DNA of 64,000 nucleotides from Candidatus Omnitrophota bacterium (GCA_030698625.1 JAUYMS010000034.1:2835-66834); one strand, 5' to 3'. Positions 9,001 to 64,000 are shown, counted from the first letter of the stretch. Numbers and translations are program-made. The notes: generated from the letters alone by a model not told the origin.

Positions 9001-12000
9001 TTCCGCACCGGTTTCATCCAACGCCCGAAGTACTCTGCCGTCGTCGAACTCAATTACCGAGCCGTCTTCCAGGACCGTTTTCAATACACTGCCGTCGGCG
9101 GCATAATCCGCCGCGGTCATGCTCTTGGCTTCAGGAGCACTCGAGACGGCCCGGTCGAGGCTCAGGGTGTAACCGTTTTCTGCAGCAATGCGGTTGTAGA
9201 TAAAGTGGGCGCCGGCGGCGTCCTCGACTTCACGCATGATTCCGAGCTTATCGTATTTGACGGAGTCGCCGGCCGCCGTAAAGATGCGTGTCGCGGCTAT
9301 TTCGGTTTGCGAAAGCTTCTCCACTGAGTGGTATTCCGTGATATCGGCCAGGATCTCGCGCACGACGAATGCCGCGGGAGTAAAATCCATAATGCCGCCG
9401 TCTGCGGCGATGCGCCTGAGCAGAGCCCCCTCGCGGATCACATCCAAAGAGCGGTCGGGGTACCGAATTAAAGCATCCACAATCTCGTTATTTTCGTTCA
9501 GCGTAAAATCCGTGATGCGTATACCGGTTTCCGTGCGCATTTCAACCAGCTGACCCGCCGCATAAAAGGCTTCGATGCCGTCTTCAAGTGTCAGGCGCAG
9601 GGCCTCGTCCTCGTTCAGCGCTGAAGCCTCCGGCAACGTAAGCGTTTCTACCAAACTGCCTCCGGCAGCCAGGCGCCTGACCACGCCGGTCGTGTCGTCA
9701 TAGTGAATCTCACGCCCATCGGCGTACCGATAAAACGCCGTGCTGCCGTCGGCGCGGTAAATCACCTCATCGCCGGCCGGCGTGATTTCGCGCACAAGAA
9801 CATCACTTTTGTAATAGAGTTCCGTTCCGTCGGCCAGCATGAAGACTTCATCCGGCGACTCCTTCTGCCGCACGATGATCTTATCGACGTAAAGATTCCT
9901 GTCGCCGTTGGTGCAGCAGTAGTCATTTGTGAAGGCAACGGCGAATTTGCGGTTACCGGCAACGAGCTCCACATCAAAAAGATAAGAATTCCATGATGTG
10001 ACAGCCACCGGATCAGGACCGGCAATCGTTTGGTTGTCGATCTTCAGCGACATGAGCGGCCAAACACCGCCACCCTGCTGGCCCCTCGCAATGACTTCGA
10101 TTTCGTATCCGCTCGTCTCCGGTATGTTACGCGTGGCATAAACCTCACCATTCGACCAAACATTCCAACCACCCGAAGCCGGTCCGCCCGTGGTCTTCCC
10201 CATATTCTCAGCCTCTAAAGTGAGGAGGAAGGGGTAGGGAGCGGACACAACGTCCGCTCCCGAGGGGGTGTACGTGGGATCGTCGGTGAGATAAAGAGAG
10301 TCGAGAAATGTGCCGTCCTCACGCTGATAAATACGGATCGTGTGCTCCCCCGCTGAAAGCACGGGTTTAAATAGACCGGCACTCCTGTCCTTGACCTGAG
10401 CCCATTCCCATGCGGTATGCGTTCCCGTGTCCCAAAGCTGAACGGGTCCGTTGTCGATCTGCACATAGAAGCTGTCGTCATCACCGCTCGGGCTCAGCGT
10501 GCGTCCCCAGAGGTAATAGGTGCCGTCCCACGGTACGGTGGTGTTGAACGTGACACTCTTATTGATGTCGGGGCTCTTAAGAAACACCCCGCCGTTCGCA
10601 ACGCCGATGTAACTGCCTGCGCTGGCATACCAGTCTTCGTAGACGGCGAAAGGACTCGCAATCGATGCGGCATTCTCGGCTTCAAGGACAATCGGCACTT
10701 CGGCTTCAATGGGCTCATAGGCCACCGCGAAAGATGCCGTCGTCTCGTTGCCGGCCGCGTCCGTCTCCGTCACCGTCAATGTGTTTGAGCCCTCGGTCAG
10801 CGTGAAATCCTTCGCTTTATCCGCGCCGTCGGCCGTATAGGTCAGCGTATAGGCCGCACGCACTGACGTTTGAGCTGAGGTAAATACAATCGCCGGCGCC
10901 GTTGAGTCGAACGTGGTCTCGACCACCACAGCCGTGCTTTCGTTTCCGCTGTCGTCTCTGGCCGTGATCGAAAAGGAGTAGAGCTTTTCTTCCGTGAGGG
11001 TCACGGCGTACGACCATGTCGTGCCTGCACTAACGGCCACAGCCTCCGCGCCGTTGATCCAAATGCCGGTGCCGGCGGCTTTGGTGCCCGCGAGGGTGAC
11101 TGTGCCGGCGTTGGTGAATGTCGGAATGTCCTCCACGGTAGGCGGCGCAATCGTTGTCACTAAATCCACTGTCACACTGCCGGTCAAAACCGTTTCATTG
11201 CCGGCCGCGTCTACTTCATCGATTCTGAGTTCGTTAATCCCCTGCACTAGATTCTCAAAGGCCTTTGTCTTGGAGATGCCGTCAACCGTATATTCCACAG
11301 TCAACGAATCTATGGTAATGACAGGGGCAGGGCCTCCCAAGCCATCGCCGGAAGCCACGGATTGAATCTCTTCGGCTGAGAGTCCGCGCTCAAAGACCCG
11401 AACATCATCCATCAGGCCGCGGAAATAATAGCTCGAAGGGCGGTCGACCCATCCGTTCAGATTGTCGTAGCCGATCCGCCAATACCCCGGGTAGTTTTCC
11501 GCCGTCTTCACCGCCGCGTTTTCAGCTGCCAAAGTGCCGTCCATGTATAACTGCATCCCGTCCGCAGAAAGAGTTGCCGCCACGTGATGCCAGGCGCCAT
11601 CATTGTAGGAATTTACAGTCTTAATCGTTTTGACGGTGCCCGGGTAGACCCCGAAATAGAGCTGGCCGGCATTGTTCATGTAAATGTGCCGGTCATAGCT
11701 AGTACTTGTGCCCGTCTGTGATCTGCCGAACCCTATCAGCTTCCCGCCCGTCGCAGAGCCTGTCTTAAACCAAAGCGAAAGACTGAATTCACTTGGATTC
11801 GTAAATGCGGTTGTAGTCGAAACATAATCATTGATGCCGTCAAAATTCAAGCTGCCGCTGTTCGGGAGGATCACATTGGGATGGTCAGGGTTTGAAGCGG
11901 GCCCGTTCATCAATTGCCCGTCATTACCCGAACCCGACTGATCCGTCACCGTGCCTCCGCTCACATCATCAAAACTCCAATATCCGGTCTGACCTTCGAG

Positions 12001-13818: not shown

Positions 13819-13999
13819 CACACGGAAAGGTACCCGCGGTTCGGTGGTTACTCAATGGGAGGAGGTCAAAATAGACGCGCGTGATCTATTATTAGTAGAT
13901 TTCTATCTATTGAATTACTTAGACGCGAGGAGATACACGATTGTGTATCTCTTCATCCAGGAGGGTACTGCACTTTGGATTTAGTGATAAAGCCTGAGG

Positions 14000-27029: not shown

Positions 27030-27419
27030 CTAGGCAGCTTGTTTGCTGCTGAGGTAGTCGCGCACAATCGCGGCAATCTCGAACGGATTGACGGGCTTGA
27101 TGAAGTATCGCTCGCATCCCGCGTCAGATCCGTCTTGGAGGTCCTGCTCCATGCTCTTGGCAGTTAGAAAGAAGATGGGGATCTTACTCGTAGTTCGATC
27201 TTTACGAATTTTTTTGGCTGCCTCGAAACCCGTCATTACAGGCATCACGACATCCATGAGTATAAGATCGGGCTGCTTCAACTTGGCCAGACGAATGCCT
27301 TCCAGGCCATTGACGGCAACATCCAGCTCAATATTCTCGCTCTCAAAGGCCAACTGAGTGATATCGATGAGGTCAGCTTCATCCTCAACCAACAGGATAT
27401 GAGGCTTGGTCGAGCTCAT
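27030..27419 (-). CDS. Single-domain response regulator (CheY-like receiver)
   Basis: HILLVEDEADLIDI...PDLILMDVVMPVMTGFE...IPIFFLTAK: phospho-acceptor Asp and conserved Lys contexts. 4-nt ATGA overlap with the upstream kinase gene. Confidence 0.8.
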   Translation of the reverse strand: MSSTKPHILLVEDEADLIDITQLAFESENIELDVAVNGLEGIRLAKLKQPDLILMDVVMPVMTGFEAAKKIRKDRTTSKIPIFFLTAKSMEQDLQDGSDAGCERYFIKPVNPFEIAAIVRDYLSSKQAA

Positions 27420-28507
27420 GACTGCTTCTCCGCGATAAGGGAGCGCGTCACATATGAGGACTTCTGGAGCCCGTCCGTCGCCGCAGGGATAGTGAAAAAG
27501 AAATCACTCCCCTTGCCCAGGCCTTCGCTCTTCACCCCGACTTTACCCCCCTGTGTCTCTACCAATTGACGCACAATCGTAAGGCCCAATCCGGTGCCCA
27601 CATATTTCTTACCGTCCCGGTGATAGGCGCGGTAGAACTCTTCAAAGACATGCTCCCGATCATGTTCATTCAGACCGATCCCGCTATCGAGGACATTGAC
27701 GTAGATCTGCTGACCTTCTTTGTCGTAAGAGGCCGTCAGCGTTACCTTGCCCCCCGGCTCCGTATATTTAATGGCATTATTAAGAAGGTTTACGACGACC
27801 TGGGTGATGCGCTCGATATCCGCAACGACGTCGGGGATAATATCAGGGACTTCATCGATGAGCTCGATTTGCTGCTGTTCGCAGAGAATACGGTGATCAT
27901 CCACACAAGACTTAAGTACCGGCACCAGATCAAAAACGTCCTTGCGGCAGTCGATCTTCCCTGAACGAATCCGTGATAGATCGAGCAGTGAATCGATAAT
28001 GCTCGTCAAACGCTGACCTTGCATGAGAATCTTGCGTACCCGCCGCTTCTGCTCATCGTTGAGCGTACCGAGCTTTTCCCGCACCAGGATTTCGGCAAAT
28101 CCGTTAATGATGGACAACGGCGTTCTCAGTTCATGTGAAGCCACAGAGAGAAACTCGTCTTTCAATTTGTCGAATCGGTTGCGCTGCGCCTGAATTTCTT
28201 CGTCATCCAGCGGAAACCGTTTGGCCAAACGCAATCCTACAAACAGCAGCGCGGGCAGCCCGACGACTACTTGCCAGGCAATTTGAAAAGTGGGCTGAGG
28301 CCAAGTAACTCCGAAAAATCCTTGCAGGATAAAACCGAAAAAGAGGAGCGCGAATAAGACCGTGAGGCTGACCGAAAATATATTACGGCTGTCCGGCTTT
28401 TCGAGGTTGTGGTGAAGAACCATAAGGAAGGCTACTGCATACAAAATGCCGTCGGCTACGTAGCCCCACACGGCGATGCTTGAATTAGTACCGAAAACCG
28501 TCTCCAT
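27416..28507 (-). CDS. Membrane sensor histidine kinase
   Basis: Three N-terminal TM helices, H-box FLSVASHELRTPLSIINGF, and HATPase N/G boxes (LLNNAIKYT, LDSGIGL, GTGLGLTIVRQLVE). Confidence 0.85.
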   Translation of the reverse strand: METVFGTNSSIAVWGYVADGILYAVAFLMVLHHNLEKPDSRNIFSVSLTVLFALLFFGFILQGFFGVTWPQPTFQIAWQVVVGLPALLFVGLRLAKRFPLDDEEIQAQRNRFDKLKDEFLSVASHELRTPLSIINGFAEILVREKLGTLNDEQKRRVRKILMQGQRLTSIIDSLLDLSRIRSGKIDCRKDVFDLVPVLKSCVDDHRILCEQQQIELIDEVPDIIPDVVADIERITQVVVNLLNNAIKYTEPGGKVTLTASYDKEGQQIYVNVLDSGIGLNEHDREHVFEEFYRAYHRDGKKYVGTGLGLTIVRQLVETQGGKVGVKSEGLGKGSDFFFTIPAATDGLQKSSYVTRSLIAEKQS

Positions 28508-28525
28508 GTTGGTCCGTGGTCAGCC

Positions 28526-29149
28526 TTATGCCGAAGCTCTGTCTTGTGAAGCCGAACCGCCCTTCCCGTTGCGGAATTGCTCGACCTTCTCGATGAGTGA
28601 ATCGCTTGAAAACGGCTTCGTCAGGATATCATGCACACCTACTTCGCGCATCCTCGCCTTGTCTTCCTGACTACTGAGTCCGGTCATGGCGACAATAGGA
28701 ACCTCTTTGAAACGAGGGTCCTCACGCATAAACCGACAAAATTCAAATCCGTCGAGCTCGGGCATAAGGAAATCCAGAAGAATAAGATCGGGGCGTTCCT
28801 CGACAAGTTTTGCGCCTGCGAGAAAGGCGTTGCTGACTTCAATCAACTTGAGGTTGGGCAAATCGCTGAGCATGTCGTGGAGAACCTCCAGAATGCTGCT
28901 GTCATCGTCGACGGCCAGAACCACGTACTCTTTCCGCTTTTCGAGTGCTTCCTCCTCCTGCCAGGGTAAGTTGTAATTGTGGGCAAATTTGACTAGCTCT
29001 TCATGTTCAATGCGACGATGACCCCCAACCGTAGTAAAGCACTTGAACTTACCGCTCTCAATCCAGCGTATTACGGTTATGGGAGTTACCCCTATAAGTT
29101 TTGCTACTTCATGTGTCGTATAGAGCTTCTTTGTTTGAGAATCAGCCAC
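28526..29149 (-). CDS. MerR/excisionase-type HTH domain fused to a receiver domain (response regulator)
   Basis: YTTHEVAKLIGVTPITVIRWIESGK (HTH_17-like), then VVLAVDDDSSILEVL...PDLILLDFLMPELDGFE...VPIVAMTGL receiver. Confidence 0.7.
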   Translation of the reverse strand: MADSQTKKLYTTHEVAKLIGVTPITVIRWIESGKFKCFTTVGGHRRIEHEELVKFAHNYNLPWQEEEALEKRKEYVVLAVDDDSSILEVLHDMLSDLPNLKLIEVSNAFLAGAKLVEERPDLILLDFLMPELDGFEFCRFMREDPRFKEVPIVAMTGLSSQEDKARMREVGVHDILTKPFSSDSLIEKVEQFRNGKGGSASQDRASA

Positions 29150-38800: not shown

Positions 38801-41800
38801 CGTCCATCAGGGCCGCGATCTGGATTTCTCCCTTTATCTTCTCCAAGGCTGCGTTGTAAGCGCGGGCATCACGCCAGAAATCTTCTTCATTAAAGACTTC
38901 GCCAAAGCCTACGGAGTTTCGGCGTTCCTCGAGCGCTTCGGGACTGCTGCTCTCGCGGAATCTTTTGACTTCTTTATTAAAGCGCTTAAATGCGGTACCG
39001 CCGGAATCGATCGCAAGACCCGCCTCGAACTCTGCGGCCTCGTCCAGGTGCCAGCCGCCTTGAATGAGGTTTAGGGCATCCGCCACTTCGAGATTATGCT
39101 TCCGGGTAAGTTCGAGGAATTCCTTGTGACCGAGAGTGGTGTGGATCGGGTTCTTGGACAGGAGTTTCTCACGGACATCCTTCTTATTGAGATCGGTATT
39201 CTTGTCGGCCAAGCCGATTTGCGTAAGGCGATCCTTGTAAGCAGTGAGAACCTCCATCTGAAAGGCCACGAGAGGATCGGCCGCCTTCTTCAGATCTTCA
39301 AAAATCTCCTCACCGAAGAATTTGACGGACTGCTTCTGCGTCGCATAAGTCTTCTTGAAATCCGCGATACAGGCCGGCGCACAGCTCAGATCCTTCTCCC
39401 ATTCTTCGAGCTGATGCTCAAGCTGCTTCTTTTGCTGCTCTATCTGGACAAGTTTGTCCTTGTCCTTCTCATTTTCTTTGAGCTTGTCGAGATAATCAAA
39501 GTTCTGCTGGAAGTTTGAGTACTTCTGGTAATCCCCGAGCACCGACGGCCCGTACTTTTTCTTGCGGACGAGGGCCTGGATGGAATCTTTGGCCTTCTCC
39601 TGATATCGCTCCTGAACGCTCTTCTGCAACGACTGGTCTTTCTTCACGCGGTTCAGGGCTTCGCGGTCCCTCACGAGAGCGAAGTATTTGTCGATCGTTT
39701 CTTTGGACGGATTGTTTTCGGGCGCCAGGGCGATACGGGCGCGTGTCCACAAGCTGGTCGCTTCATCGTCGGCAAGGGCCGCAATACGCGAGCGCAGCCA
39801 CTTCGCTTCGGCATGGCGGTCCACCAAACCGAGCAAGATCCCCTTGAAGAAATAGCTGAGGTAGAACTTAGCACCCACAAACGGGGGCTTCGCATTCCCT
39901 TCCGCATCAAAAAGCGTACTCCGCGTATAGTAACCGCTCAATGCCTTGTAAAGGCCGACAAGAGAGCCGACGCCGACCAACGGGTACCAGACATAGCTGC
40001 TGCCGAGCACTCCCACAACCGTCTTACCAAGAGCAAATGTCGCCGCCGTACCGAGAGCACCTTTAACCGCCGCGAATGCCGTTACGAGCCAGCCGATGAG
40101 CGGGAACGAGAATCCCAATCCGAGCCCCGTCGCAATGGCCGGCAGGCCGAAAACCAAAAGTGCGCCGATGCCGGCTAGCGCCAGCCAGAAGAGCGGGCTG
40201 CGGGCAAAACCAAGCAGGTATGTCTCGATGTTCCGCACGGCACGGAATTGTGAGATCAGCAGAAGCGCCGCCAAAACCGCTGCAACAATCATCGAAACGC
40301 TAACGAGCACCGCGCCTCCGAGGAAGAATCCCCCGGCCAAGAGTCCTGCCGCTAGGCCGATCTCGAGGGTACGGCGGAGCGGCGTCACATGGGTGATCTT
40401 GCCTTCCTTATCGATTCTGTCTAAGCGCTCCTTCGTCTTCTCGACGCGTGACGTAAAGAAGAACTTAATCTTCTCGACTGCGGCGGAGAAGAAGGCCTTG
40501 ATGCGCGTACCGAAGAAGAGGACGATGCCGGTAATGGCAAGCGCGCCCACCACAATAACGGTCGGCACGACGATCATGGCGAGCAGTGATCCGCCGGCAA
40601 TCACAGCCGCGCCGATGTTAAATAAGATGAATCCGAGCAGACCGAGACCGAGGCCCACCTTGCCGATTTTCAGAAGCGTCTCATTGCGTTTCGCACGGCG
40701 CAGTTCCCGGACCTGTTCTCGGGCGTCATTGCGCAGCTCGACAAGGCGTGCGGCGTCAAGCACGCCGCGCTCCGTGCCCTCCGTAACGATAACCGCGAGG
40801 GCAGCACGCTCCTGACGCAGCGACTGTTCGAAGAGTTCTTCGGTCTTGATCTGGTCGTCGGTGCGGTTCTGTCCATACCAGGCCGTCCATTCATCCGGCA
40901 GTATGGAATCGAGGACCTTTTCGGCACCCCGCCGCAATAGCATGCGTAAAATAAAGAAGAAGCGTGCAACCTTCGTGTCGGGGACTCTAATCCGCTCCGG
41001 CAGAATACTCGTCCAGGCGCCGAAGAAATCACCATAGGACTCGGCGCGAATGCCTAACGCCCCGCGGTAGATCACGCGCCGCTCGGAACGCAAAGCGAGG
41101 TTGGTCTTGCGGAGGTTTGCGCGGACACTCGCAGGCACGTCGGTAAAGGCGGCATGTGAAACTTCTTGGTTTAGAGCCGCCAGCGCGTCGCGGGTTGCGC
41201 CCACATCGCCGCTGCTTGCTGCCGCGCGCACGCGCGCAATCCCGTTAATAACCCCGGCCAGACGTGTACGCTGTGCTGCCGGCAGTCGGTCGAGCGCGGC
41301 CTTCGACTGCCCGAGGGCCGTATCGATGCCGCTTTCAGCCGCATCCGTAAGCGTCGCCGCCGGCCGCAGGCTCTCCTTCTGGCGGCGCGAGAGACGTGAG
41401 GTATTGATGCCCGACAGGATATCGCCGGCACCCTGAGTGAGGTCGATGCCTTCGATGTCTTCCGCATTAATGTAGGAATCTTCAATCAAGTAACCGCTGC
41501 CGATGTCGGCAAGGACCGTCGAACCATTGATCGTGGTATCGTCACCGATGGTCACGTCGTCGCCGATGATCGTGGTGCGCTGTTTGAACTTGTCCTTATC
41601 GTCCTTCTTCTTATCGGGATTGATCTCACGATTGCGCAGACGCACATTGCGGCCGATTTGCACGCGACGGCCGACCACCACACCTTCGCCGACAACCGAG
41701 TTCTTACCGATAACGGTCGGACGCTCACGGTCACCGTCCTTGATGGTGGCGCCCCGGCGTACCACTGAGTTCGCTTCGAGGCGGACATTGCGGCCGATCT

Positions 41801-44800
41801 TGGCCTGAGCCTGAATCACCACACCGCTTGAAATATAGACACTTTCATCAATTTCGGCGAACGTGTCGACATGCACAAACGCAAAACCGCCGTCATCAGC
41901 TTTAACCCACCGCAGTTTGCCGCGTTCCACGTCGATCTGTGTCTTGAGACTCTTGAGCTCGGCCGACACCTCGATGGCCGCGGCCGTATGGCCCTGCTCG
42001 AGTTGCTGCAGCATCGGGTCGGCGGCCACCATCTGTTCATAAGTTTGCCCGTAGACCGCCCGCACAACGAGATCGCCGTCATTGCCGGCCTCGGTCCGCT
42101 CGCGCAGGCCATAGAAGTTGATCCCGCCCGAGGTAATGCGGCCGACGCTCAGGGAGTCAACCCGGTTAAGCAGAGCCTCGGGATTCTGAATGAGAGCCCG
42201 GCGCTCGTCTTCATTGAGTTCGAGCCGGATACGCGGCTTTCCGGGCTGCCTGATGACAACTGTGATCCTGCGGTCAGAGCAGTCACCGGCGCCGCCGCAC
42301 ACCGCCGAGCGATCAAGTTCGCGCAATGCGAGGATGGCGTTGGAAAGCGCCCGGCTGGTGGACTCGCTCGAAGTATTTTCCGTATCAACCGTAACCGTCG
42401 CACCGGCATCGGTACGTTCCACAATCACAACGTCCTCGGCCGTATGGACAGACGTTGCTGCACCGGCTTCGGTTTCAGTGGATTCAACAGCAGGAGCGGC
42501 GCGTTCGGCTCGTTCATCCTCAGCAATACGGATCACGATAGGTTCATACTCTCGCACCGACTCAACCGTATTATTGTATTGAACATTCCGAATCACTTTG
42601 AGTTCACCTGCAGGCGTCTTTAGCTGCGCCTGGCGGTTGCCTTCGAGCACGTTGCCGAGACCGCCTTTTACGACCGTCTGCGTCGCCACGATCTTGGTGG
42701 CCCGGTTTCCGACGAGTGCCGCGGCATTAAAGCCGATCGCGGCCAGAATCGCCGGAATAAGCGGCAGCCCCAGCAGAACCGCTGCGCCTGCTCCGGCGCC
42801 TATCACGGCCAGCCCAAGCAGCAGTACAACGGCAATAGCGCCGCGCTTGCCGATACGGTTCTGCAATGCGCTGAATCCCAGATACCCGGCAGTCACGCCG
42901 ACGAGAAGGCCGAGGACGGTACCGGCGAGTATGACCTGCGCGAAGAGAATTCCGGCCACAATTAAGCTGCCGAACGCCGCCGCCAATCCTCCGGTAAGGG
43001 CTAGTGTGCGCAGGAAGCTGAAGCCTGCGGCACCGGCCTCCTGAATCCGGGCACGGAAACTCCCGAGACCCACGAGGTCCATAATCCGTCCGATCGTATT
43101 GCGTATAAGCCAGTTGAGACCCAAGCGGCTGCTCAGCGTCGGCAGTACCGACAAGACGAGTCCCGCGCCGAAAACAATACCGGCAACAAGTAAGACACCG
43201 AATGGCGCAAGGAAGAAGCTGACGGCGGCCGCTACAAGCGCGCCGGCAACGGCAATACCGCCGATCACACCTGTGCGTCCGCGGAAGCGATTGAGCGCGC
43301 GGCCGACCTTGCTCAAGTCTTTCGGCGCCGTCGCATCCGCTACGTCGGCGGCCAAACCGGGGTGAGCTTTCTTGAGCTGGTCCAAGGCATCCGCGACGGT
43401 ACGCTCGCGGACTGCACCCAACGCCAGCGCGGCCTGTAGGCCCTGCACGCCAAGGTAAGAACCTTCGCGGCCGAGGCTGCGAAACTCGACGGCGCAACTC
43501 GAACAGCTGTTCAACACCGATCGCGCGGCAGTCTCTGCTTCGGAACCGATAATACTCTTAAGTGAAACATTAAGCGGCACTCCCGATTCCCGGACCGCGA
43601 TCAACACCTGGGCCGCACGGCGGGCTTTTAACGCATGGTCGGTAAGCGTGTCCTGGTCGGCGATAAACTGATTCAGGATATCCGCCAAGAGTGTCTGCTT
43701 CGCCTCTTCGCTGAGTGTTTTGTCGTTGCTGATCTCTTCACGGATGCGGCTGACAAATTCATTCTCGAGGCGGCTCTCGGCATTGTGAATCCCCCGGACC
43801 TCAAGATTACGCCGCTTCTGTTCCGACTGTTCCTCCAGCTTCAGAGAATGTTCGTAGGCGCCGTTGATCAACGCGCGGCCGAGGTTGTCGATATACTCGC
43901 GTTCGGAAACAGCTTCTTCAGCCAGCAGGCGGAGGCGGTAGGCTTCGGCACGGCGCGCCGCTACATCGTGGTCTCTGCCCTCTTCGGTAAATAGCGGTGT
44001 CCCGGTCGTCTTAGTGCGTTCGCCGCGTATACGGTTCAGTTTATCGATACGTTGCGCGTTCGCATAGCGCCTCGCATCGTCGACGCGCGCGGCGTCGACA
44101 AGTCGGTAACCGAAAGCTTTGAGTTTCGCTTCAACTTCACTGGCATTCTCGGCGGTGACTTCCGTCTCAAGCGAACCCTCGCGGCCGATGGCAAACTGCC
44201 AACCGAGCGCGCGCAGCTTGCCGTTCAACCACGACAGAGCCGCGGCCTGACCGCTGTTTTGGGCACGGGTTCTATAGTCGCTGAAAAGCTGCGTCACTGC
44301 ACTCGTGACTGCGCGATGACTGAAATAGGAATCCTCCGCTGACCCAAGACCAGCCACGACCTTCTTGTACTCCTGTTGGATCTGCGCAGGCGTTCCGCGA
44401 AACGCTTCGAGCCTCTTCGCTTCCTGCAGATAGCCGAGCCCGCGCAAGAAGCGGCCCAACCGTCTCTGTAAGAGTTGCGCGTTGCCCTGAACTTTTCGGC
44501 CGAGACGCAAACGCTCGACGCGGCTCTTGAAAAAGCCCTTAATTTCACGATCGCCGTTGGTCTGCCGGTCGCCTGCGATGACATACTCATTCAACGCCTG
44601 CTTCTCGCTCGTGAGTGTCACGCTCATGCGGCTATAGTTCAACTTGACGGTATAACGTTCATTACCGATCTCAAGCGTCTTGCCGTCAGTCAACTGATAA
44701 TTAACGCCGCCGACCTTGAGACCTGTAATCTGACCGTCCTTGTATGTAAAGTCAAAATTTTGTCCGTTCTCCTGAACAACCTGACTACCGCTCGCATCAG

Positions 44801-47800
44801 CATCACTGCCGCTCTTATCAGCAGGGACGCTGAATTGTACACGGGTATTTCCGTTTTGATACTGCTGGTATGCCGCCTCACCCTTGGATGCCAGATACTC
44901 GGTAGTCGAGACCGCGCCGTTTTTCTGCTCACCTTCAAATTGTGAGAACTTCTGTGACTCCTTAGCGCGGGCATTAAACTCGACCTTGCCGGGCAGGTGG
45001 TCGATCAGAATGCGGTCAGCCGTGGCTTCGGTCGTATTCCTGCGCGCCTGGCTGAGAAGCGCTTCGAGCTTGGCCCGCTTTACGTCGAGCTTGCGTTCAA
45101 GCCCCGTCGTGTCGCGTCCTTTAGCGCGAGCGGCCTCGACCTTTTGCTGCAAGGCGAAGTACTGAGCCAATGTTTTCTTAAAGAGCGCAAAGCTAGCGGC
45201 ATCGGCTTTCGTTCCCGGCAGGTTTTCAAAGCCGAGCGCCACAATCTCATTTACGTCCCACTCATTGACATAAATCTCACCGACGCGGCCGGGCGCTTCA
45301 TTGCGGCCGGAACGCGCCACTGCCTGCTCGAAGTCAAAGAGGTTGCGGCTTGCGCCCACGGCATAACCCAGTTCCCCGTAGGCGTAGCTGACACTAAACT
45401 TGTCGAAGAATTCTGCGACATGCGTTCGATACGCCGCTTCGATCTCTTGCGGCGTCGCCGAACTCTCAAGGCCGAGCTTCTCAAGAAGGCTCGTACGCGC
45501 ATCACCGCTTGTCGCTTGCGCTTTGGCTACCGCGGCATTCCCAGTTTCGGCACTAAACTTATCAAGAAGCTTCATCACATCGTCACGCGTCAACTCATCC
45601 GTGACCGGCAGTCCGACGCTGCTGCGCAAACCGTTGATAAAGTCGAGAACCTTCTGCCGTTCCGCCTCGGAATAACCGGCGAGTACTTCACTCAGCTTGA
45701 CTGTTGCCGTCTTATCGTTCAGGTTCTCACGCAGCGCATCCTGCAGAAGCAAGCGCTGCAAATGATGGAGCTTCTCCAATTGCTCGGTCTGCTCATTGGC
45801 GCTGTAACCTGCCTGACGCAGCAGCTCGCGCAGGCTTCGTTCCACGCTCTTGTCCCTGTCTCCGCTCTTGACGCTTTGTGAAAAGGAAGCGAAAGGCGGC
45901 ACGAAGTTCGTACCACGGCTGACATTATTCGAGGCAAAAACGACACCGCGCAGGAGACCGCCGTCTTTACCTTCCTTGCGGCCATAGTCACTTTGAGATC
46001 CGTCGAGAAGGTAGATGCGGCCGGCACTGAGAGACAGGTCCTCGAGACCGTGCAGGGCCGTAAGTAAATCGAAATCCGTCCGCACACGCGAACGCAGGTT
46101 GGAGAAAAAGCGGCGCACGGCATTATTGAGTGCCGGCTTCGCGGTCGCATCACCCCACTTGCTGCTCAACTCTTGAAGCAGGTTCTCGAGTTCGGCCAGC
46201 ATGGCCGTGATTTCAGCGTCCGTGAGACCCAGTTTCGTCTGGTTTGCCCTGAGCGTGGCCTCCGCCTGCGCCTTCACATTGGCAATGTAACTCTTTACAT
46301 ATTTGCGATAGGCCTGCTGGGCTTGTTCCGGCGACTTAAAGAACAGACGCGAGATCGTGCGGTAGTTCTTCTGTGCATCGGCCACCAGGTCGGCGATAAC
46401 CCGGTCCACTTCTGCCGCCGTCGTAAATTTGGTCTCATTGATAAATCGCGCACGCCTAATATGGGTATCGAAGTTTAGATAGTCCTCCGGGCTCGCGATG
46501 ATCTTGAACGCGGCCGCTAGCTTCAGGAAGGCCTTATCCTCCGTCTGGATGAAGGCCTGATCACGACTGCCGGAAGGTATGGATTTCACGGATGCCAGGA
46601 CCGTACCGCTCGATCCACTGAGGTCCATGCTACCATCCTCGAAACGCCGCGTCTTCATCTCAAAAACCACAAGACTGTCATTCTCACCGCTGGTCTTGCT
46701 TTCCGCTTCGACCTTAAGGACACCGCCGTTGTCAAAAACCAGGGACTGGAAAGCGGCTTCCAAAATAGTGCCGCCGAAATTGCTTTCGCGCTGCGTCGAG
46801 ACACCTTCGTTGCTCATCACGCGCACTTCATAGACGGGCGTACCGCTCTCGTCAATCTTGTCGCCTTTGGCATCTTCAGCCACTTTGAACCCGAAATCCT
46901 TGCCCGCACGGCGAGCCAGTAGGATCTCGAGACTGCGGCGCAGGAGCATCTCGAAAGCCTTGTCGGGATTCTGCAGCTGCTTGCGTTCCTCTTCACTGAG
47001 AAGCAAGTTGGAGTTGTCGAGTCCGAGCTGGGCAAAGAAATCTTGAACGTTACCCCCTCGGCTTTCGACGCGTTGCACAAATTTCTTGTAGAGTTCCTTC
47101 GACTTCTTGCTGAACTCGTCGGTCGTGCGCAGGCTTAACCGGCCGTCAGTCCCCTCGGAATCTTCAAGGACAAAAAGCGTGCCCGGTTCTGTACGGCTCA
47201 AGAGCCGACGTGCGGTGCGGGCCCACTTCTCATGGGTGCGCTCAGTCGCACTTTCGGTGCGGATGCCGAGGTCCTGCTCCACGAGTTCCTGAGCAAAGCC
47301 GAGAAGAGTGCCGAAGTTTTCGACATTCTTCTTCGCAAGACTGCGGCCCCCTTCCGCATTGATATAACGCATCAGGATCATAAAGATGGCGTCAATTTCG
47401 TCCACGCTCAGGATGTATGAGTCGTCCGAGAGGTTCTTGTCGTTAGGCGCACTGCTCTGGTCTTCTAAATACGCAAACTGATAGTCGGAAATCGATATGT
47501 ACAGGACGCGCGGCTTTTGTTCCTTGTTTGAAAATGCCTGTTTGAAGGTATCCCTGCCCATCTTGTTCTTCTTGAGGCCGTAGGTTTCAATACCGAATGC
47601 CGCATAAACGGCCTGGTTTTCATTCAAGAGGTCGTCGCTTACGGCCTGTTCGGTATGCAGGAGATGAGCCACGGTAGGCCCGACAAAGGCCTTCAGAATA
47701 TTTCGGAAGAGCAGTGTGCCGGTCTTACCCTGCGCGGTCGGGATACCGCTAAGGATGCCCTGAATCAAGGCCGCGCCTTCTACCAGCTGAATGCCGCGAA

Positions 47801-50800
47801 CCGAATAGTCGAATGCCGCATTGAAGTGGCGCTGGGCAATGGTCCCGGCCACGAGGAACTTGAAGACGATATCGTTCGGAATTTCCCGGCCCTGAATTTC
47901 TTTCGCTTTGTGATACTCATTACCGAGGGCTTTCAGTTGGGCCGCGAGGAGTTGTTTCAGAGAGTCGGAGGCATTAAAGAGTTCGTGAACCGCATTGAGG
48001 GTATCAACCGCCGCCTGTTCTTGGCTGCTGAGGAAGACAGATCCCTTGTCGTCATACAGCCCGCGCTTGCCCTGTTCGACGAGCTCGCGGAGCAGTGTGC
48101 GAAGCGCTGCCTCTTTCTCCGCCTCTGAACGTGCCGTATCGAAAAGGATATCCCGCACGCCCGCAAGCCTGTTGCGCAGAGGCTCCGGCAAGGCATCGAA
48201 ATCCGCGGCCGACAACTTTCCATTTTTAAGGGCCTTCAAGAGAAGCTTCACTTTGATGTCAAACTCTGCCAGTTGTTCGAGATAGATCGCCTTCTTCGCG
48301 CGCGCAGAAGTCTCTGCGTCATCACCCTTCAGTTGGAGCAGGCGCTCCCTCTCAGTAAAGGAGGCGATATCGTCCTTGTTTTCTTCAATACGAAGGTACT
48401 TGCTATCGAAGGCATCGGCCTCTTTGGCGGCTTCGACCCCTTCGACCAAGTCAGTCAGTTCAATGGACCGCGGGTTGTCCGGCGTGAGCTTGGCGTTCTC
48501 ACCGACCAGCCCTTCCAGGCTTCGGATGCGGCGTGAGAGTCGATCATTCTGGATCTGTAGTTCACGCTGGCGCAGAGGATTACGCAATTCATCTCCGGCC
48601 TTCAATTGCGGCCCGATGACGTGCTCACGAAATTCCACGAAGTGGTCATGCAAGGCTTTGCCGGCTTTCTGGATTTCGCCCTCGGCTTCTTTGGCCTTCT
48701 TGAGCAGTTCTTTGGCTTCTTCCCTCAGGGTATTAAGAGTCGCGCGAAGCCTAACCTTGCTCGCGCGTGAACCCCGCGCGGCAAGGAGACTCTCGGTCTC
48801 TTTGACCTGCTCATCTACTGCAATGAGCTGTGCCCGGATGCGCGCGAGAACCCCATTAGCGGCGTCAAACTCCGACTCGAGGACATCGGCTCTGCGGTCC
48901 AGAGTCAGAACAATTTCATCCGTGCTAAGGACATTGCCGTCGGCATCGAATTCCGCCCTGAAGGCAATGCCCGTGCGGGCGTCTTCGACATAAACCACGA
49001 CCTTGCCGTCGAGGTAGAAGAGATCCGTCCCCGGCTTGAGCTCCCGGCCAAAACCGTTGACGCGGTGCCCGGCAATGTGACCCGTGTTGTCGAGAAAGGC
49101 CTTCTGGGCATTTTCGCCGTAGTTGCTGTAGCCGATTTCCTGCAGGCCGTCGGCGTCACGCCCGGCAAATGTGCGGAAACCAACCTCGTCCCCGTTTTCA
49201 TTAAAGAACCACACCGCATCCTGACCATTCAAACGGCCTTTGGCGATAAAACCGCCTGAGGCCGTCACACGCACGTCGCGCTCATCCACCTCGGCGCCGC
49301 GGTTCACGGTCAGATCCGCATGAAGTCTTTGACGCCGTTCCTCGAGCTCTTTTGCTTTACTCTCAGACCTTTTGGTCGTGCCTCGCGTCGCAGGATCTCT
49401 GCGATTCAGGAAGCGGTTCGTATCCCGGAGCAGCCGGTAACTGCCTGAAAGTGTCACGAGGAAGCCAAAACCGTCGAGCTTGGCGAGGGCCGCGAGGAGT
49501 TTCGCGCGCTGGTCCGGCGTGAGTGTCTTAAAGCGTTCGACATCGCCGTTGATAACGATGGCTTCCTGATCGGCAGCGGCAACTCCGGCGGCCGTCAGCT
49601 CCTGATGATGCAGCTCGTGGCCGGTGAAAAAGCCGAGCAGAAGCGACAACTCACCCGCGCTAAACTGACCGGAGAAAAGGCTCGCATCCAAACGGATCGT
49701 CCCGGTTGCAAATTCGAAGTCTGCAGGATGCGGGGCATTCTCAAGTATTTCAATCCTCAGATGGTTCGGAACCGCATGGCCAAGCGCGGCAAGCCTGGCG
49801 ATCGTCCGGTTCTGGAGGAGAATTGCCGTCACGATAAGGCGGCGGCGCTTCATCCCCTCGGCGTCGGTACCGATCCCGAGTGACACAAAAACGTCTTCAA
49901 GTTCCGCGAGCAGTTGACGCCGTGCGCTCAACACGTCCGTGACGCGGCCAAGTGCCCTGCGGTCAAGAACGATCGTGCCGGTAGCCGGGTCGATTGTCAC
50001 AAGACTTGAGCCCGAAACGGTAGGCGTTACACCCTCAAGAACATTGGTGCCTGCACCGCGGGTATCGGCGGTCAGAACCGGGAACGCGGCGGCGGCAGCG
50101 GTACTGCTCTCATCTCCCTCACGCAAAGCAGCACCTGCGTGGGCCGCGACATTTTCGGCTTCGCGGCGTTCGAGCTCGCTCAATTCGCGGCCTTCGGCCA
50201 GGCTCGCGTAAAGCGATTCCTGCAATGCCGCCGTGCGGACGGCAAGCTCGCTGAAGTGGTCTTGCAGGGTCCGGTCGCCGGCAGTCACCGCAACATACTC
50301 GGAACGGAACTCCTGTAACACGCCTTCGCCGGCAAGCGCGAGGTGAGCATTACTCTCACCCGTAGTGTCGAAACTGAGCGTAAGCGCATCATATTTGGCC
50401 TGGAACTGATTACGCGCAGTTTCGGTATTCCGCACTGCCGCTTCAAGGGCGGTACGGGCCGCCTGCACCTGGGCATAAGTGGCACCTTCGCCCCGGAGGT
50501 AGCTGCTATAGATCCCGCGGAACTTCGCGGCTGCTTCGCGCTGCGAGTCCGCAGCCGCTTCGTATTGATCGCGCAGAGCACGCAACACCGCAAGCTCCGA
50601 GGCACCGCGGCGGCTGAGGTCTTCGGCCGCGTGAGCATCGTCCTCGGTGAGCCTTATGGCCTCGTCGGTGACGGGCGCGGCATCAAGATCGATACCGGTA
50701 CGGCGGGCCTCGAGTCTGGCGCGGCCTTCCGAGAGGTTGTCTCTAGCTGCCTGCACCAAGGCGAGAAGCCCGGCAAGCTCGGCGTCAGTGAGATTGCCTC

Positions 50801-53800
50801 CCTTTAATAAGATTTCCAGATAGCTTCTAGCCTCGTCGAGCGACTCCCCCGCAAGCCTCAGCTGGCGCTCGGCGCCCTCAATCGTGGCCCCTTCAGCCTC
50901 CGCCCGAGCGGCCGCGTTTGTCGCGACTCGGGCATTCACTTCAATGCCCAGTCGATACGCTTGTGCCAGCAGCGCTTGTGCTTCCTGCAGTGTAATTTTT
51001 TCGTCCTTTAAGGCACTGCGAATGCCGGCGATAAGCGCCCTGAGCTTACCCTGAGCCCGAATGCCCTTCGTAAGATCAAGATCCGCCCCTCTAGCGAGTT
51101 CCTCAGCCTGAGCCTGCGTCGCGTTCAGTCCATCAAGGACCGTCGTATCACGCGTGCCGGCTTTGTTGATCTGCTCATTAATCGCATTGATCACTGCGTC
51201 AAGTTTGGTATTGAACTCCTGATTGGCTTCAGATAATGCCTTTGCCCTTGTTCCCTTAAGCAAGCCTCTGAGTGTCTTTTTCAACTCGGTGATGTCTGTT
51301 ACTTTGTGAAGGGCGTCGAGTTTCGAAACAACAGCACGCGCCGCATCGAGATCTCCGCGCAGGACCAGGGCTTCTGCCAGCTCGGCGGCCGTTCCGACCT
51401 GCTCTGCCGTATAGGTATCTGCCGTACGCGACGCGGCCCAAACTCCAAACTCCGCATCGGATAGAACCGCCGCTTCTGACGCCGACAATTTTTGAATCCT
51501 CTCAGTGTCCGGCCCCCGCGCTTCTTTCTCAGCGGTTTCACGGCGGTTGCGCGCCACATCCAGGACCTGCTCGATCGCCGCGTGCACGGCTTCGTCGCGC
51601 GGCGCGCCCTTAGCGGCACGGTTAGCAAAGTTCACGGCGCAGGAGCTGCAGGTCGCATCAAGGGCTTCAAGGTCTGCGGCAAAATCAGCGTCGATCTCAA
51701 TTCCCGAACGCGCTACGTTTTCAAAGGTATGCCCCACACGGTCGGCCCGTTCATCGGCAAGTTCCTGCTTCTGCGCCTCACTGAGCGAAGACCCCTTGAT
51801 GCCTTCGATCATGGCATCATGCGCCTGCTTCTGCTGCTGCAATGCGGTCCGAAGCGCATCCCGATCACCCGCCCGAATCGCGTCTTCCACCGCCAGCTCG
51901 GCCCTAATGGCCGCAAGTTCATGACTTGTTTCGCCGCAGCCACCGCCGCCGCATAGTTCCTGGAACTTCGAGACGTTGTTCCGGACAGCGTTGATGTCCA
52001 GCGTATCCACACGGCTCAAAGCGGCGGCGGCCTTCGCCCGGAACTGATTAGCCTGGTTCGCCGTCACACCCAGTTCAGCCTGCAATGTCTGCGTCTCGGC
52101 ATAGAGCCCGAGGATTTGAGCGCGCAGCTGCTGCATCTGACGGTAGGTCTGCGCCGTCCGCGGGCGAGCCTGAAGAGCGGCTAGTTGGTCGATCTTGGCA
52201 AGTAACTCATCAGCGGCTTCGACGAGCCGCTGCGCTTTGGCGCGGGCCGCCGCATCCCTCTTGAACGCCTCGTCGATGTCATTCAGGAAGTCTGCGCCGT
52301 CAACGAAAAGATCGGCGGCCGTCACGGGAATGGCGGCTCTGGCGGCCGCGGCCGCTGTCGCAAGTTCTACGCGAAGCGCGCCGAGTTCTGCGAGCACAGT
52401 CGCATGCAGAGAAACTGCCTCAGCGGCCGGCGCATAATTCAATACTTCTCCAGCATGCCGGTAAGCGGCGCGCAGTTCTCGAGCGGCTTGCGTCAGTTCG
52501 CCCTTAACGAGATGTTCACGGGCCTTGGCGGCACGCGCCCGAGCCTTGGCCGCATGTATTTCAGCTGCGGTGCTTGGTTCGGAGGCCTCAGCCGCCGCTT
52601 CTTCATCAGCCGAAATCAATCGATTGAGACGGTCCGCGAGATCCTGACGTGCCGACCGGATTCCATTGCGTATCGCATCGGGTACTGAAAAGAGCATGAC
52701 CAGAAGACGCAGGGCAATCCACTCAACCAGGATGACGGCACCACCGGCAACGAGGCCGGCCGTGATGGCCAGGGCGATCGTAAGCATTACAGCAATGGCC
52801 ATCGAACCGCCGACAAGGGGCACCAACACCGGCAAGAGCAGTGCAAACATAACGATACCGGCCGCAATCGCCAAAACTGACGCGATGTTAAAGTACTGCG
52901 TACCCAACGTACCGAGGACCCATCGTAAGCCGTCGACGATCCGCGAAGACAGGGTCTTGCCGGTCCTCTCAGCCGGCGCAATCGTCTTAGCCAACCATTC
53001 GATCAAGCCCTTCTTGCCGTTTTCGAATGCCTGATTCAGAGCGCGAGCCACTGCCGCAATCCTTGTAGACACTGCAATGACCGGCGGTGCCAACGCGCGC
53101 GTTATGAGCACCGCAACAATAATCGCCGTCAGTACGGCCGCGGCAACAACACCGACCGTAAGACCGAATACCAGGGCGAGTGCAAGCGCAATACCCGCAG
53201 TAACCGCCAACTGATCGGAGACACGGCCTGTCAAAAAGCGGTACATCCCTTCCGGTATCACCTCAGAGATGGCCCAGCCGGCAAGGCCAAGCATGCCTAG
53301 GAGCAGAGCCACACCCAGGAAACTCAGCACTATGCCGGTAAGCGTGTAAGCCGCCCCGGAGATTATTAATCCCGCCAATGCCACAAGCGCCGGAACTCCC
53401 AACACCAGCGCCGTCACCACGGCGGCGGCCGCACCCATCACAAGAAGCATGCGTGTCGGCGAAATACTGGCAACGCGATTCCGGATTGCCGTACCCAAAG
53501 AACTCGCGAAGCCCCTCAGTAAGGTCCTCAGGTTGATCGGGATACGGAGAACGGTTTCTTCGGGTCTGGTCTCCCCGAATGCCGGTATCGTGATGGTTTG
53601 AGTGAAGAGAAATAAATCACTGACATACAAGACTGCCGCAACCAGAGCGCTCACGATGACAGCCGCGACAAGCCCCGGAAGAATACCGCCGAGAACAAGA
53701 GTGAAGCTGGTGATCACGGCTGCCGCAACAGCGGCAGTAACAAGGGCAATCGCGATGCGGCGCCCGTAATTGACAGCAATATCAACCGCCTTGTCGAAGG

Positions 53801-56800
53801 TAGCTTGCGCCGCGAGCAGGCTGAGCGCAACGGCCGCCGCCCCCATAAGCACTGCAAGGCTGAAGGCGTATGCAATCTGCTGGCGATAAACGATGGCTAG
53901 CGTGACAAGCGTCGTCACAACAGCAACCGCCGCAACCGTCCCAAAAACCAGCGCAAGTCCGAGCGCAACACTGCCGAGTGTGAATCCGAGGATCGTGCCG
54001 ATGCCGGCAAGCACAAACGGTGCAAGCACTAAGGCGAGGATGATCTGTCCCGCACGGTCGCCGGTTAAGCCGAGCAACGAACCGATTTGAATGGCATACG
54101 GGATCACGGTCGCAAGAGTTGCAATGATGGCGATTGTTGCAATGGCATTAATCACACCGCCGACAACGAGACCTACGGCCGAGACCGCCAACACACCTGC
54201 CGCAACAACAGTTAAACCAATTCCAATTTGACGGCGGTACTTGACAGCAAGTTCGGTCAGGTTCGACGCACCTTCATATGCGAGAGCGGCGACGATAACG
54301 CTTATGATCCCAATCGCGATAGCCGCGCCGGCGCCATAACGCGCTAGCGTACGGCCGACGGGAGGCCCGTATCGAACGGCCAGGTCCTTCAATCCGACAA
54401 GCAGGTTGTAAGCAACGGAGAGACCCGCAATAACGGTAAACACACCGATAATGGCCCCGGCAACTGCTGCAAACACCAGGGCCTCGCCGATTTCGCTGCG
54501 ATAAGCGACGGCCACGATGACTAGCGCCGCAACTGCCGCAATCGCCAGGGTAACGCCGATCAGGATAACGGCACTCGCCACAAGGCTAACGCCCAACACA
54601 GCGTTCACACCGAGCAGCAGGCCGACGCCGGCCGCAAGTGCGGCTCCGGCAATACGAATTCGCTGTGCATTGGCCGCATAGAAGTTCGCGACGGCAGTCC
54701 CGGCAGATGAAAGCGCCGAAGTTATTGCAGTCGTAATCGTGCTGCCATAAGTACGAATCAACCAATTAATACCTGCCGCGACGGCAGCGACACCGGCAAT
54801 TGCAGCAAGGCCGAGAGCGGCATACAACCCCACCGTCAAGGCCAAGGCCGGTGCCAAGCCAATGCCGAGAATCGCGGCCACACTTGCAAGTACAATCCCG
54901 GTCGCAACACGATGACTCCACAGGAACTGGGCCACCCTGCCGATCACGCGACCGGTCGCCATAACGGTCTGGAAGATCAGATAAACAGCGGCGCCGAATA
55001 ACGCCGCGGCCAACGCAAAGGCACCGAAATACGCCAGTGATGCAAGAAAGCCGCCGGTCAGCGGAATAAGAGCAAATGCCGCACCGAATACGACGGCACT
55101 GAGCCCGAGGGCTATGGCGATCGCGCGGACCACCTGAGCTGTCTCGGATTCTCCTGCTTTTACCCAAGCGGTAATCGACGCAATAAAACCCCAGAGACCG
55201 GTCAATGCAGTCAGTGAGGCTTGCTGCAAAGTAGTGCTGAGTATGAGTCCGATAGCGATAAGAACGGCAGCCGCAACAGCGGCCCCGACCACACCGCCCA
55301 GGAAGAATGTCGCCGCTCCGCCTGCCGCAAGGACCAACGCGACAGCCGCGACGGCGCGCAGGTTCATACGGCTCAGGAATCCGCGCAATTTGCTGAAAGC
55401 AAAGTAAGTGGCCCCGAGGGCGAGAAACCCCGCGAGAACCATGTAGATCTGGTTGATGAAGGGCCTTATTTGGTCGGCACTTTCGGGGAGACCCGTATTT
55501 TGCCCTATACCTTGCGAATCAAGAAATACAAGAAGGAGAGCAGCCAGCGCAAGTCCGGCGATACCACCAGCGACAATCTTGACCATTTCTAGCAGTGCGG
55601 AGCCCCCACTCCCTGAACGAGCGCGCCGGCTCGGAGTCGTACGCCCGGAAGGCGCGACGGCGCCCGAATCAGACGGTGTCACGACCACGCCACCGTCATC
55701 CGGTGCTTCGAATGCGTCGGCACCAGATGCAATGGGCGGAGCAAAATCCGTAATGGGGGGGACAGCTTCGGCCTCATCGACTATCGGCGGTGCCGGCGCC
55801 GCTCTGCCAACGGGAACCGTTTTATCTGCCTCCGCAACAGGCAGGGCATTCAGTTCGGCCTGCGTCGACGCTGACCGCGACGTAGCATCCGCGGCGTCCT
55901 TCGTCATGCCTAACGCGGCGTAAAGCTGCGCTGCCTGACGGTAACTCTGTATGGCAAGTCTATACTCGGCCGCAGCCGCGGCATAATACGAGCCGGCATC
56001 CCTTGAATCAGCTCTCCTCGCGCGAAATTCAAAGTCCTTTGCCAAGGTATAATGCGAGTCTGCTTCGCCATACAGCGACTCCGCCTGAGCCGAAGCAGCG
56101 GCCATATCGGGCACTCCGGGTGTGACAGGCGCCGCCGGCGCAGACTGATCAGACGCACTTTCGACAATGGCCGCGCGAAATGCCTGCACAAGCGGCTGCG
56201 CATGGGTATAGCCGGTGTTGTACAAGTATGCAGCGTCACCTTCGAAAAATCGGGCATTCAGGCCCAGCGGCTTCCCATTCGCGCCCTGGGCTTGCTCGGG
56301 ATATTCAATGCCGGGCGCCGATATGCCCGCCTGCAGCACGACTGTGTCATTGACGCCATACGGAGTGATTGCTCCATCTGCGAGTTCCACATGCCCTTGC
56401 CAACTGATATCGTATTCGGCATTGTGGTGGAAGGAGTAAATAAGTTTGCCGTCCTTTGACTGAACGAGAACGGTGCGGACATCGCCTCCAAAGGCATCGT
56501 TATACCGCGTTTGATCGGACAGAATGCCGTTTTCGAAATCGGGCGCCGATCCTTCCTGCCGAACACCCTGTTCGGACGGGTTACTCGAATGATTGAATGC
56601 GACGTATTGACCCCCGTCCGCCAAGGTCGCCGCATACCCGGCCTGTTTGACCATGCTATCGACCACGCTCAACGGTATAAACAGGGCGGCATCGAGCGCA
56701 TCACCCAGGGTCGTTCCGTCAATGACTTCAAGACCGTCGAGGTAATCGCTCACGCCCGTGCGAAGTGTCTGCTGTGTTTCATGATGTCCCTTGCCGAGCC

Positions 56801-63965: not shown

Positions 63966-64000
63966 AGCCGGGGTGTCATTGGCGAAAAGGTTCGTAATGA

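Follow-up and report, generated by a model that had tools for sequence, protein, structure and literature searches.

The question raised by this locus is what a motor-like ATPase domain could be doing in the middle of a giant protein with many predicted membrane segments. In a 64,000-nucleotide stretch of DNA from Candidatus Omnitrophota bacterium (GCA_030698625.1 JAUYMS010000034.1:2835-66834), hereafter the window, the giant gene B occupies positions 29814–63965 of the minus strand and comprises 11,383 codons counted from the first GTG. The original prediction, made from this DNA alone, placed a SecA-like ATPase motor at 45700–47850 within the gene. We numbered the residues of the gene B protein from the GTG at 63965. 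The frame has no stop codon from this GTG as far as 63998, at the window edge; since the stretch 63966–63998 upstream is stop-free, the real N-terminus may fall outside the window, gene B is possibly longer than 11,383 residues, and all residue numbers are therefore relative.

Residues 5312–6262 (45180–48032, minus strand), as delimited by Pfam and PDB profile matches, the family alignment, and structure, very probably constitute a SecA-type motor that is a very divergent homologue of SecA, the ATPase of bacterial protein export. The only NTPase family that Pfam reported was PF07517 (SecA_DEAD), with 44 bits at profile positions 6–211 (residues ~5312–5529), so that NBD1 lies above the curated cut-off of this family (gathering score 24.6). 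NCBIfam likewise gave SecA and SecA2 models only, at 29–33 bits. A PDB search with the single sequence returned only SecA chains (E ~2e-3), and searches with 7- to 13-member family profiles returned only SecA and SecA2 (E 1.6e-12 to 1e-6). Comparison of the family with a SecA alignment by hhalign gave a probability of 96% for NBD1, at a sequence identity to SecA of ~20%. The predicted SecA-like ATPase is thus borne out, the profile searches giving SecA and no other NTPase family; the helicase families PF00270 (DEAD) and PF00271 (Helicase_C) were not listed at E ≤ 1 or at E ≤ 10.

The profile methods recognised only NBD1 as far as Walker B, and in the family alignment beyond NBD1 the conserved blocks follow the order and wording of SecA. 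The alternative alignments of hhalign put motif V (E 8e-4) and motif VI (E 0.04) on the matching SecA positions and, with the 7-sequence alignment, also gave a very weak match for the region of motif III (E 0.5). HMMER reported a second, collinear domain match over motif V with a conditional E of 1.7e-5. An unguided MAFFT E-INS-i alignment set GMTGTA, GRGTD, and RGRSGRQGDPG of SecA opposite GSSGT, RGTD, and ARSGRNE.P of the family; the tool MAFFT alignment with full-length SecA misplaced motifs III, V, and VI and was not used. A set of ordered patterns with spacing limits ([AG].GK[ST], DE.D, RG.[DN], and Q..[AG]R.GR), chosen after the sequence had been seen, occurred once in the real 11,383-residue protein and in none of 2000 composition-preserving shuffles.

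The module, all parts of which are encoded on the minus strand, opens with an N-terminal helical lead of NBD1 (residues 5312–5389, 47799–48032) that corresponds to SecA_DEAD profile positions ~6–80. The first part of NBD1 proper (residues 5390–5530, 47376–47798) holds an invariant Gln, Walker A, a post-Walker-A block, and Walker B. The adenine-contacting Gln closes the family signature RG(I/V)Q (R-G-I-Q here, residues 5390–5393), equivalent to FD.Q of SecA. Motif I, or Walker A, reads IPTAQGKTGT (residues 5408–5417, 47715–47744), its family form T(A/D)(Q/E)GKT (residues 5410–5415) corresponding to TGEGKT, and the block V.H...A..D...N......FG.T.G (residues 5431–5463) was aligned by HMMER to the SecA segment after Walker A. 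Motif II, or Walker B, is SVDEIDAI (residues 5520–5527, 47385–47408), with a D-E pair invariant in the family (DE(I/M/V)(D/E), residues 5522–5525; DEVD in SecA). A domain of 233 residues is inserted at the position of the preprotein-crosslinking domain (PPXD) of SecA (residues 5531–5763, 46677–47375), as the AlphaFold2 (AF2) model and Foldseek indicate, and motif III, DLSGSSGTV (residues 5781–5789, 46599–46625; LSGMTGTA in SecA), marks the return into NBD1, where the family form G(S/A/G)(S/T)GT (residues 5784–5788) is equivalent to GMTGTA.

The NBD2-like region that follows (residues 5790–6262, 45180–46598) was recognised at the level of motifs. Its landmarks are F(P/D)TH..RAR (residues 5832–5840), a strand RTISRLFF (residues 5869–5876), and IYLLDGSQ (residues 5984–5991), and it contains a helical insert (residues 5879–5975, 46041–46331) whose length varies within the family and whose local predicted local distance difference test score (pLDDT) is 80–93 in the 1011-residue AF2 model. 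Motif V, GVVFASNNVSRGTNFV (residues 6007–6022, 45900–45947), is equivalent to VTIATNMAGRGTDI of SecA; its core is (R/Q)G.D in the family, RGTN in the gene B protein (residues 6017–6020), and GRGTD in SecA. Between it and motif VI the family alignment delimits a variable insert (residues 6023–6195, 45381–45899), at what we take to be the site of a variable subdomain in some SecAs. Motif VI, FDFEQAVARSGRNEAPGRVG (residues 6210–6229, 45279–45338), corresponds to QLRGRSGRQGDPG of SecA and has the family form Q..(A/S)R(S/A)GR...P (residues 6214–6225), with QAVARSGR at residues 6214–6221 (45303–45326). Two registers are conceivable for the start of NBD2, with FPTH..RAR equated either with IPTN.P..R.D of SecA or with PILVGTAS; we prefer the first on secondary-structure grounds. 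A pairing of QRES.FGAT with RRWSDGLHQA of SecA was dropped, as MAFFT pairs it with QRESQTLA of the SecA used; neither pairing is significant.

The four blocks quoted in the original prediction can all be read in the minus-strand translation (RHF at residue 5379, AQGKTGT at 5411, LSVDEIDAIF at 5519, and ASNNVSRGTNF at 6011), and its reading of the Walker A, Walker B, and motif V blocks agrees with the family alignment and the conserved residues. The RHF, proposed as part of the Walker A context, proved coincidental: R-H-F-D-x-Q of SecA aligns to S-V-R-G-I-Q at residues 5388–5393. The proposed interval (residues 5372–6089) falls inside the module and is too short for it, the true extent being 45180–48032. 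The module starts ~60 residues before that interval, at residue ~5312 (Pfam profile position 6), and ends ~170 residues past it, motif VI lying ~370 nucleotides beyond the lower boundary.

Among 1.84 billion representatives, searched exhaustively with phmmer, only seven relatives turned up, and canonical SecA was not among them. All seven come from metagenome-assembled genomes (MAGs) and are pieces of other giant proteins; their labels include Omnitrophica, "bacterium", and "Candidatus Aenigmatarchaeota archaeon", once each. The contig of the last (P0005; JACQNY010000098.1, 23,686 bp) carries a partial giant gene alone, which makes a binning error the probable source of the archaeal label. A word-indexed protein search with the single sequence, a 7-sequence alignment, or a 12-sequence NBD1 alignment gave either no match or canonical SecA alone, even though P0004–P0010 are present in the collection; negatives from this search carry little weight for such proteins. 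A search for related loci with the protein as the query found none, and a degenerate DNA pattern for the Gln-to-Walker-A block picked out six more members on contigs from metagenomes and GTDB, which brought the family to ~13 giant or fragmentary proteins of uncultured bacteria. Three of the 12 loci retrieved with the pattern were rejected as family members, since they match the DNA by chance and encode no motif in frame: L001, and a pair from Ktedonobacter racemifer and a Ktedonobacteraceae MAG (L006 and L012). BLAST homology of the gene B protein with its relatives spans residues 4954–6726, 7046–8308, and 8457–9116.

The members are 23–44% identical to one another overall. All 12 sequences compared keep the Gln, the Lys of Walker A, and the Asp-Glu of Walker B, and 9 of 9 keep the motif VI arginines, so that the two features for which a check had been proposed, the arginine finger and the Q-motif, are conserved. 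The first Gly of TGEGKT in SecA is replaced by Ala in 11 of the 12 members and by Asp in the remaining one.

Structure prediction points in the same direction as the profiles. A model of residues 5340–5830, from the second of two AF2 runs, reached a pLDDT of 70 and a predicted template modelling score of 0.50. Its input consisted of the family rows and one SecA row limited to residues 1–226; the insert was therefore modelled without SecA input. The model comprises an alpha/beta RecA-type domain and an inserted domain and is not a coiled coil, the fold that would have spoken against the motor. The top 33 Foldseek matches in the PDB were all SecA or SecA2 (E 1e-9 to 2e-4), most of the SecA alignments spanning 435–456 of 491 columns; RecA1 domains of DinG and DEAD-box proteins came next (E > 1e-3), the RecA1-only matches covering ~170–180 columns. 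Two long strands (residues 5531–5542 and 5753–5763) exit and re-enter NBD1 around the 233-residue alpha/beta insert, an arrangement that in the model resembles the stem of PPXD, and the insert is, judging from this prediction, likely PPXD-like.

Compared with canonical SecA and SecA2 (PDB 1M6N, 1TF5, 2FSF, 3DIN, 6ITC, and 6SXH), the module shares the NBD1 profile and fold, the insert between Walker B and motif III, and motifs I, II, III, V, and VI in the order and wording of SecA. It differs in being embedded in an 11,383-residue membrane protein, whereas canonical SecA is a soluble protein of ~900 residues, and in the parts that were not found in it, namely the HSD with its two-helix finger, the HWD, and the SEC-C zinc finger. 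The scaffold/wing family PF07516 gave no match at E ≤ 10 in residues 5850–6300 or 6231–6730 and none at E ≤ 0.01 in the whole protein. The SEC-C/zinc-finger domain was not detected, and hhalign of the family alignment after motif VI against SecA found nothing past that motif. The NCBIfam equivalogs TIGR00963 and PRK12904 failed to match at full length, scoring 29–33 bits against 800–814 and covering positions ~6–211 only. Since scaffold, wing, and zinc finger are undetected and the equivalog tests failed, the module is not a SecA orthologue; by its sequence, it is a SecA-derived DEAD motor core.

The module is set in a polypeptide rich in hydrophobic segments. Hydropathy scans found ~30 such segments, grouped in three clusters that flank the module on both sides; as these rest on hydropathy, the helix count and parity are approximate. 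The upstream transmembrane-like cluster (residues 2797–3763, 52677–55577, minus strand) has ~20–25 hydrophobic Ala/Gly/Val-rich segments by Kyte-Doolittle scans, and the two downstream clusters lie at residues 6901–7070 (42756–43265) and 7764–7975 (40041–40676) on the same strand. The upstream cluster, nearly 1,000 residues of Ala/Gly/Val/Leu-rich hydrophobic segments, contains very few charges.

These features have close parallels in the literature. West-Roberts et al. 2023 (bioRxiv 10.1101/2023.11.21.568195) reported that full-length giant genes of Omnitrophota all encode numerous transmembrane regions and that most of them encode divergent SecA DEAD domains, which have the preprotein-binding domain, lack scaffold and wing, and form a long-branched clade apart from the normal SecA of the organisms; they proposed a role in the export of the giant protein itself. 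That paper centres on far larger proteins, up to 85,804 residues (10.1101/2023.11.21.568195). A 2026 preprint (10.64898/2026.06.07.730766) described a 20-protein PF07517 architecture cluster of Omnitrophota proteins of at least 10,000 residues, and giant transmembrane proteins bearing SecA_DEAD also occur in some Actinobacteriota (10.1101/2023.11.21.568195; 10.64898/2026.06.07.730766).

Gene B fits this description. It is a very long single open reading frame with numerous transmembrane-like segments, and three of its neighbours encode proteins that match NCBI entries MDP3920460, MDP3920461, and MDP3920464 ("Candidatus Omnitrophota bacterium") exactly, entries that belong to a MAG contig of 70,371 bp. 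Like the giants of West-Roberts et al., it belongs to Omnitrophota by the annotation of its neighbours, exceeds 10,000 residues, is rich in transmembrane segments, and has, close to transmembrane regions, a divergent SecA DEAD domain that lacks scaffold and wing; as in the published giants, PF07517 is almost the sole Pfam match and a domain of the acyl-transfer type is also present. Unlike them, it shows no detectable PF01043, which in the published proteins overlaps the DEAD domain, and its subfamily is set apart by ~13 detectable members, the TAQGKT P-loop, and two large NBD2 inserts. Two of the relatives, P0004 and P0005, come from groundwater MAGs of the kind used in such surveys, which is only a hint of a link to the clade of West-Roberts et al. 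The motor of gene B is therefore a further example of a kind already described for Omnitrophota: the domain is real but not a discovery, and its presence in such a protein, which the original prediction called unusual, is so in general and not among the giant proteins of this phylum. Sequence comparison gives it four traits of its own: the detectable subfamily is tiny, Ala stands at the first Gly of the P-loop, the insert has diverged beyond recognition by PF01043, and NBD2 carries two large inserts.

As to function, a role of the motor in export has, in our estimate, about an even chance, and we lean slightly towards the combined proposal of a SecA-type motor acting in export. The module would lie in the cytoplasm and hydrolyse ATP there, tethered by the transmembrane segments of the giant protein itself, which would replace the scaffold and wing of SecA. 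An unfolded polypeptide would be gripped by a clamp to which the inserted domain contributes, and then pushed across the membrane, either through SecYEG or through a conduit built from the helices of the giant protein. The most likely substrates would be extracytoplasmic stretches of the same giant protein, in line with the role that West-Roberts et al. put forward for the published giants. A bolder version, a self-contained machine independent of SecYEG in which the motor is permanently tethered to a channel of the protein's own helices, seems improbable to us; such a machine would thread thousands of residues from its own C-terminal region, or else a giant partner protein, out to the surface of the cell.

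Several observations weigh against a SecA-type motor that exports protein. The two-helix finger with which SecA pushes its substrate sits in the scaffold domain, which is undetected in the module. PF01043 (SecA_PP_bind) and PF21090 (second P-loop domain) were not detected even at E ≤ 10, hhalign of the insert against SecA gave no match to PPXD, and an NBD2-only family profile retrieved SecA2 from the PDB at E 9 only, which is not significant. As the motifs are collinear and conserved and this profile match is not significant, we infer NBD2 from the motifs rather than from an independently significant match. The first AF2 run, on the 1011-residue module with 7 sequences, was poor (pLDDT 53), and Foldseek returned only noise for it. 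At the level of residues, the gene B protein has Ala for the first Gly of Walker A (TAQGKT) and, alone in the family, Asn for the Asp of motif V; the Walker A Thr is lost in P0006 and L009, and the motif V Arg in P0008.

The best-placed alternative, which we regard as unlikely though worth keeping in view, is that the module is an active SecA-derived ATPase with a task other than export: remodelling or unfolding cytoplasmic parts, feeding a protease, or serving as a conformational switch that regulates the membrane parts. The catalytic motifs are conserved, yet the scaffold and wing that dock to SecY and push the substrate are undetected, and the two large family-specific inserts in NBD2 and a conserved beta-rich module after the motor would suit such a task. 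No positive pointer to another substrate emerged, however, every one of its closest relatives in structure and sequence is a protein translocase, and the insert stands exactly at the PPXD site.

The region after the motor (residues ~6262–6520, ~44400–45180, minus strand) has a helical stretch shared within the family, L..L..EAR...T.....RI.I....AR.EF..N, often a GPNGDG motif, and the small beta-rich module, I.I.G..Y.V....G.I.GL; none of the three matched Pfam or SecA.

A decayed SecA motor, catalytically dead and kept as a structural or binding module, is an improbable reading. The residue losses listed above, from the first P-loop Gly and the motif V Asp in the gene B protein to the Walker A Thr in P0006 and L009, would fit such decay, as would DEVE and QGND as motifs in P0008, a very divergent branch with 7 relatives in 1.84 billion representatives, and a second half without a profile match. 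Against these stand the Lys, Asp-Glu, Gln, G(S/T)GT, and R(S/A)GR, which are fixed despite an overall identity of 23–44%, the pattern expected under selection for catalysis.

A nucleic-acid helicase of superfamily 2 (SF2), DEAD-box-like and acting on RNA or DNA rather than on protein, is very improbable. The RecA-like alpha/beta fold of RecA1 and the generic motifs I, II, III, V, and VI are common to both, and DEAD-box proteins, reverse gyrase, and DinG do appear as weaker structural matches; their Foldseek scores, however, are clearly below those of SecA, Pfam matches to DEAD or Helicase_C are absent, and the domain inserted in NBD1 is a hallmark of SecA that sets the module apart from DEAD-box and other SF2 helicases. 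A chance resemblance or an open reading frame artefact, for which nothing speaks except the low identity to SecA, is next to impossible in view of a stop-free frame of 34 kb, homologues with 27–33% BLAST identity over ~400 to >1,800 residues, a Pfam match above the gathering score, and a motif set that the shuffles never reproduced.

A SecA-type motor that exports parts of its own giant protein would bear on how bacteria insert or export proteins of 10,000–100,000 residues, for which a SecA-type motor within the substrate is the only mechanistic lead known to us. Gene B offers a comparatively small and well-delimited example, with exact motif coordinates, a 13-member alignment that displays the conserved catalytic residues, and a module of ~950 residues. 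The self-contained machine, if real, would represent a new form of autotransport, in a nanobacterium living as a predator or symbiont.

The original prediction had also suggested that the motor might act on a partner such as gene A, for which we found no support. Gene A, a second giant frame of at least 4,617 codons (1–13851, minus strand), is cut by the left edge of the window. It lies ~16 kb downstream of gene B with ~ten unrelated genes between them, and it shares no similarity with gene B or with the relatives of gene B. It encodes an N-terminal hydrophobic anchor, two Laminin_G_3 domains, CBM60, Big_13, FG-GAP, and a Peptidase_C39 that adjoins two transmembrane-like segments. Laminin_G_3 domains were noted in giant open reading frames of Omnitrophia by Seymour et al. 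2023 (PMC10066038), which agrees with the content of gene A.

Within gene B, a hexapeptide-repeat domain of the left-handed beta-helix acyltransferase type (PF00132, 54 bits; residues 7366–7445, 41631–41870, minus strand) lies between the two downstream transmembrane clusters, in a stretch with BLAST homologues in P0004 and P0005. Directly downstream of gene B, at 27416–29149 on the minus strand, are a response regulator (helix-turn-helix and receiver) and a histidine kinase, then a transaldolase/phosphoglucose-isomerase fusion of 1,014 residues on the same strand. Further same-strand genes downstream encode an amidase, RecN, a PEP-CTERM protein, TPR and FecR proteins, and a CHASE2-SpoIIE phosphatase. 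Scanning the window for Rfam families and tRNAs yielded nothing. The G+C content is 47% at 1–2000, a part of gene A, against 52–61% elsewhere in the window.

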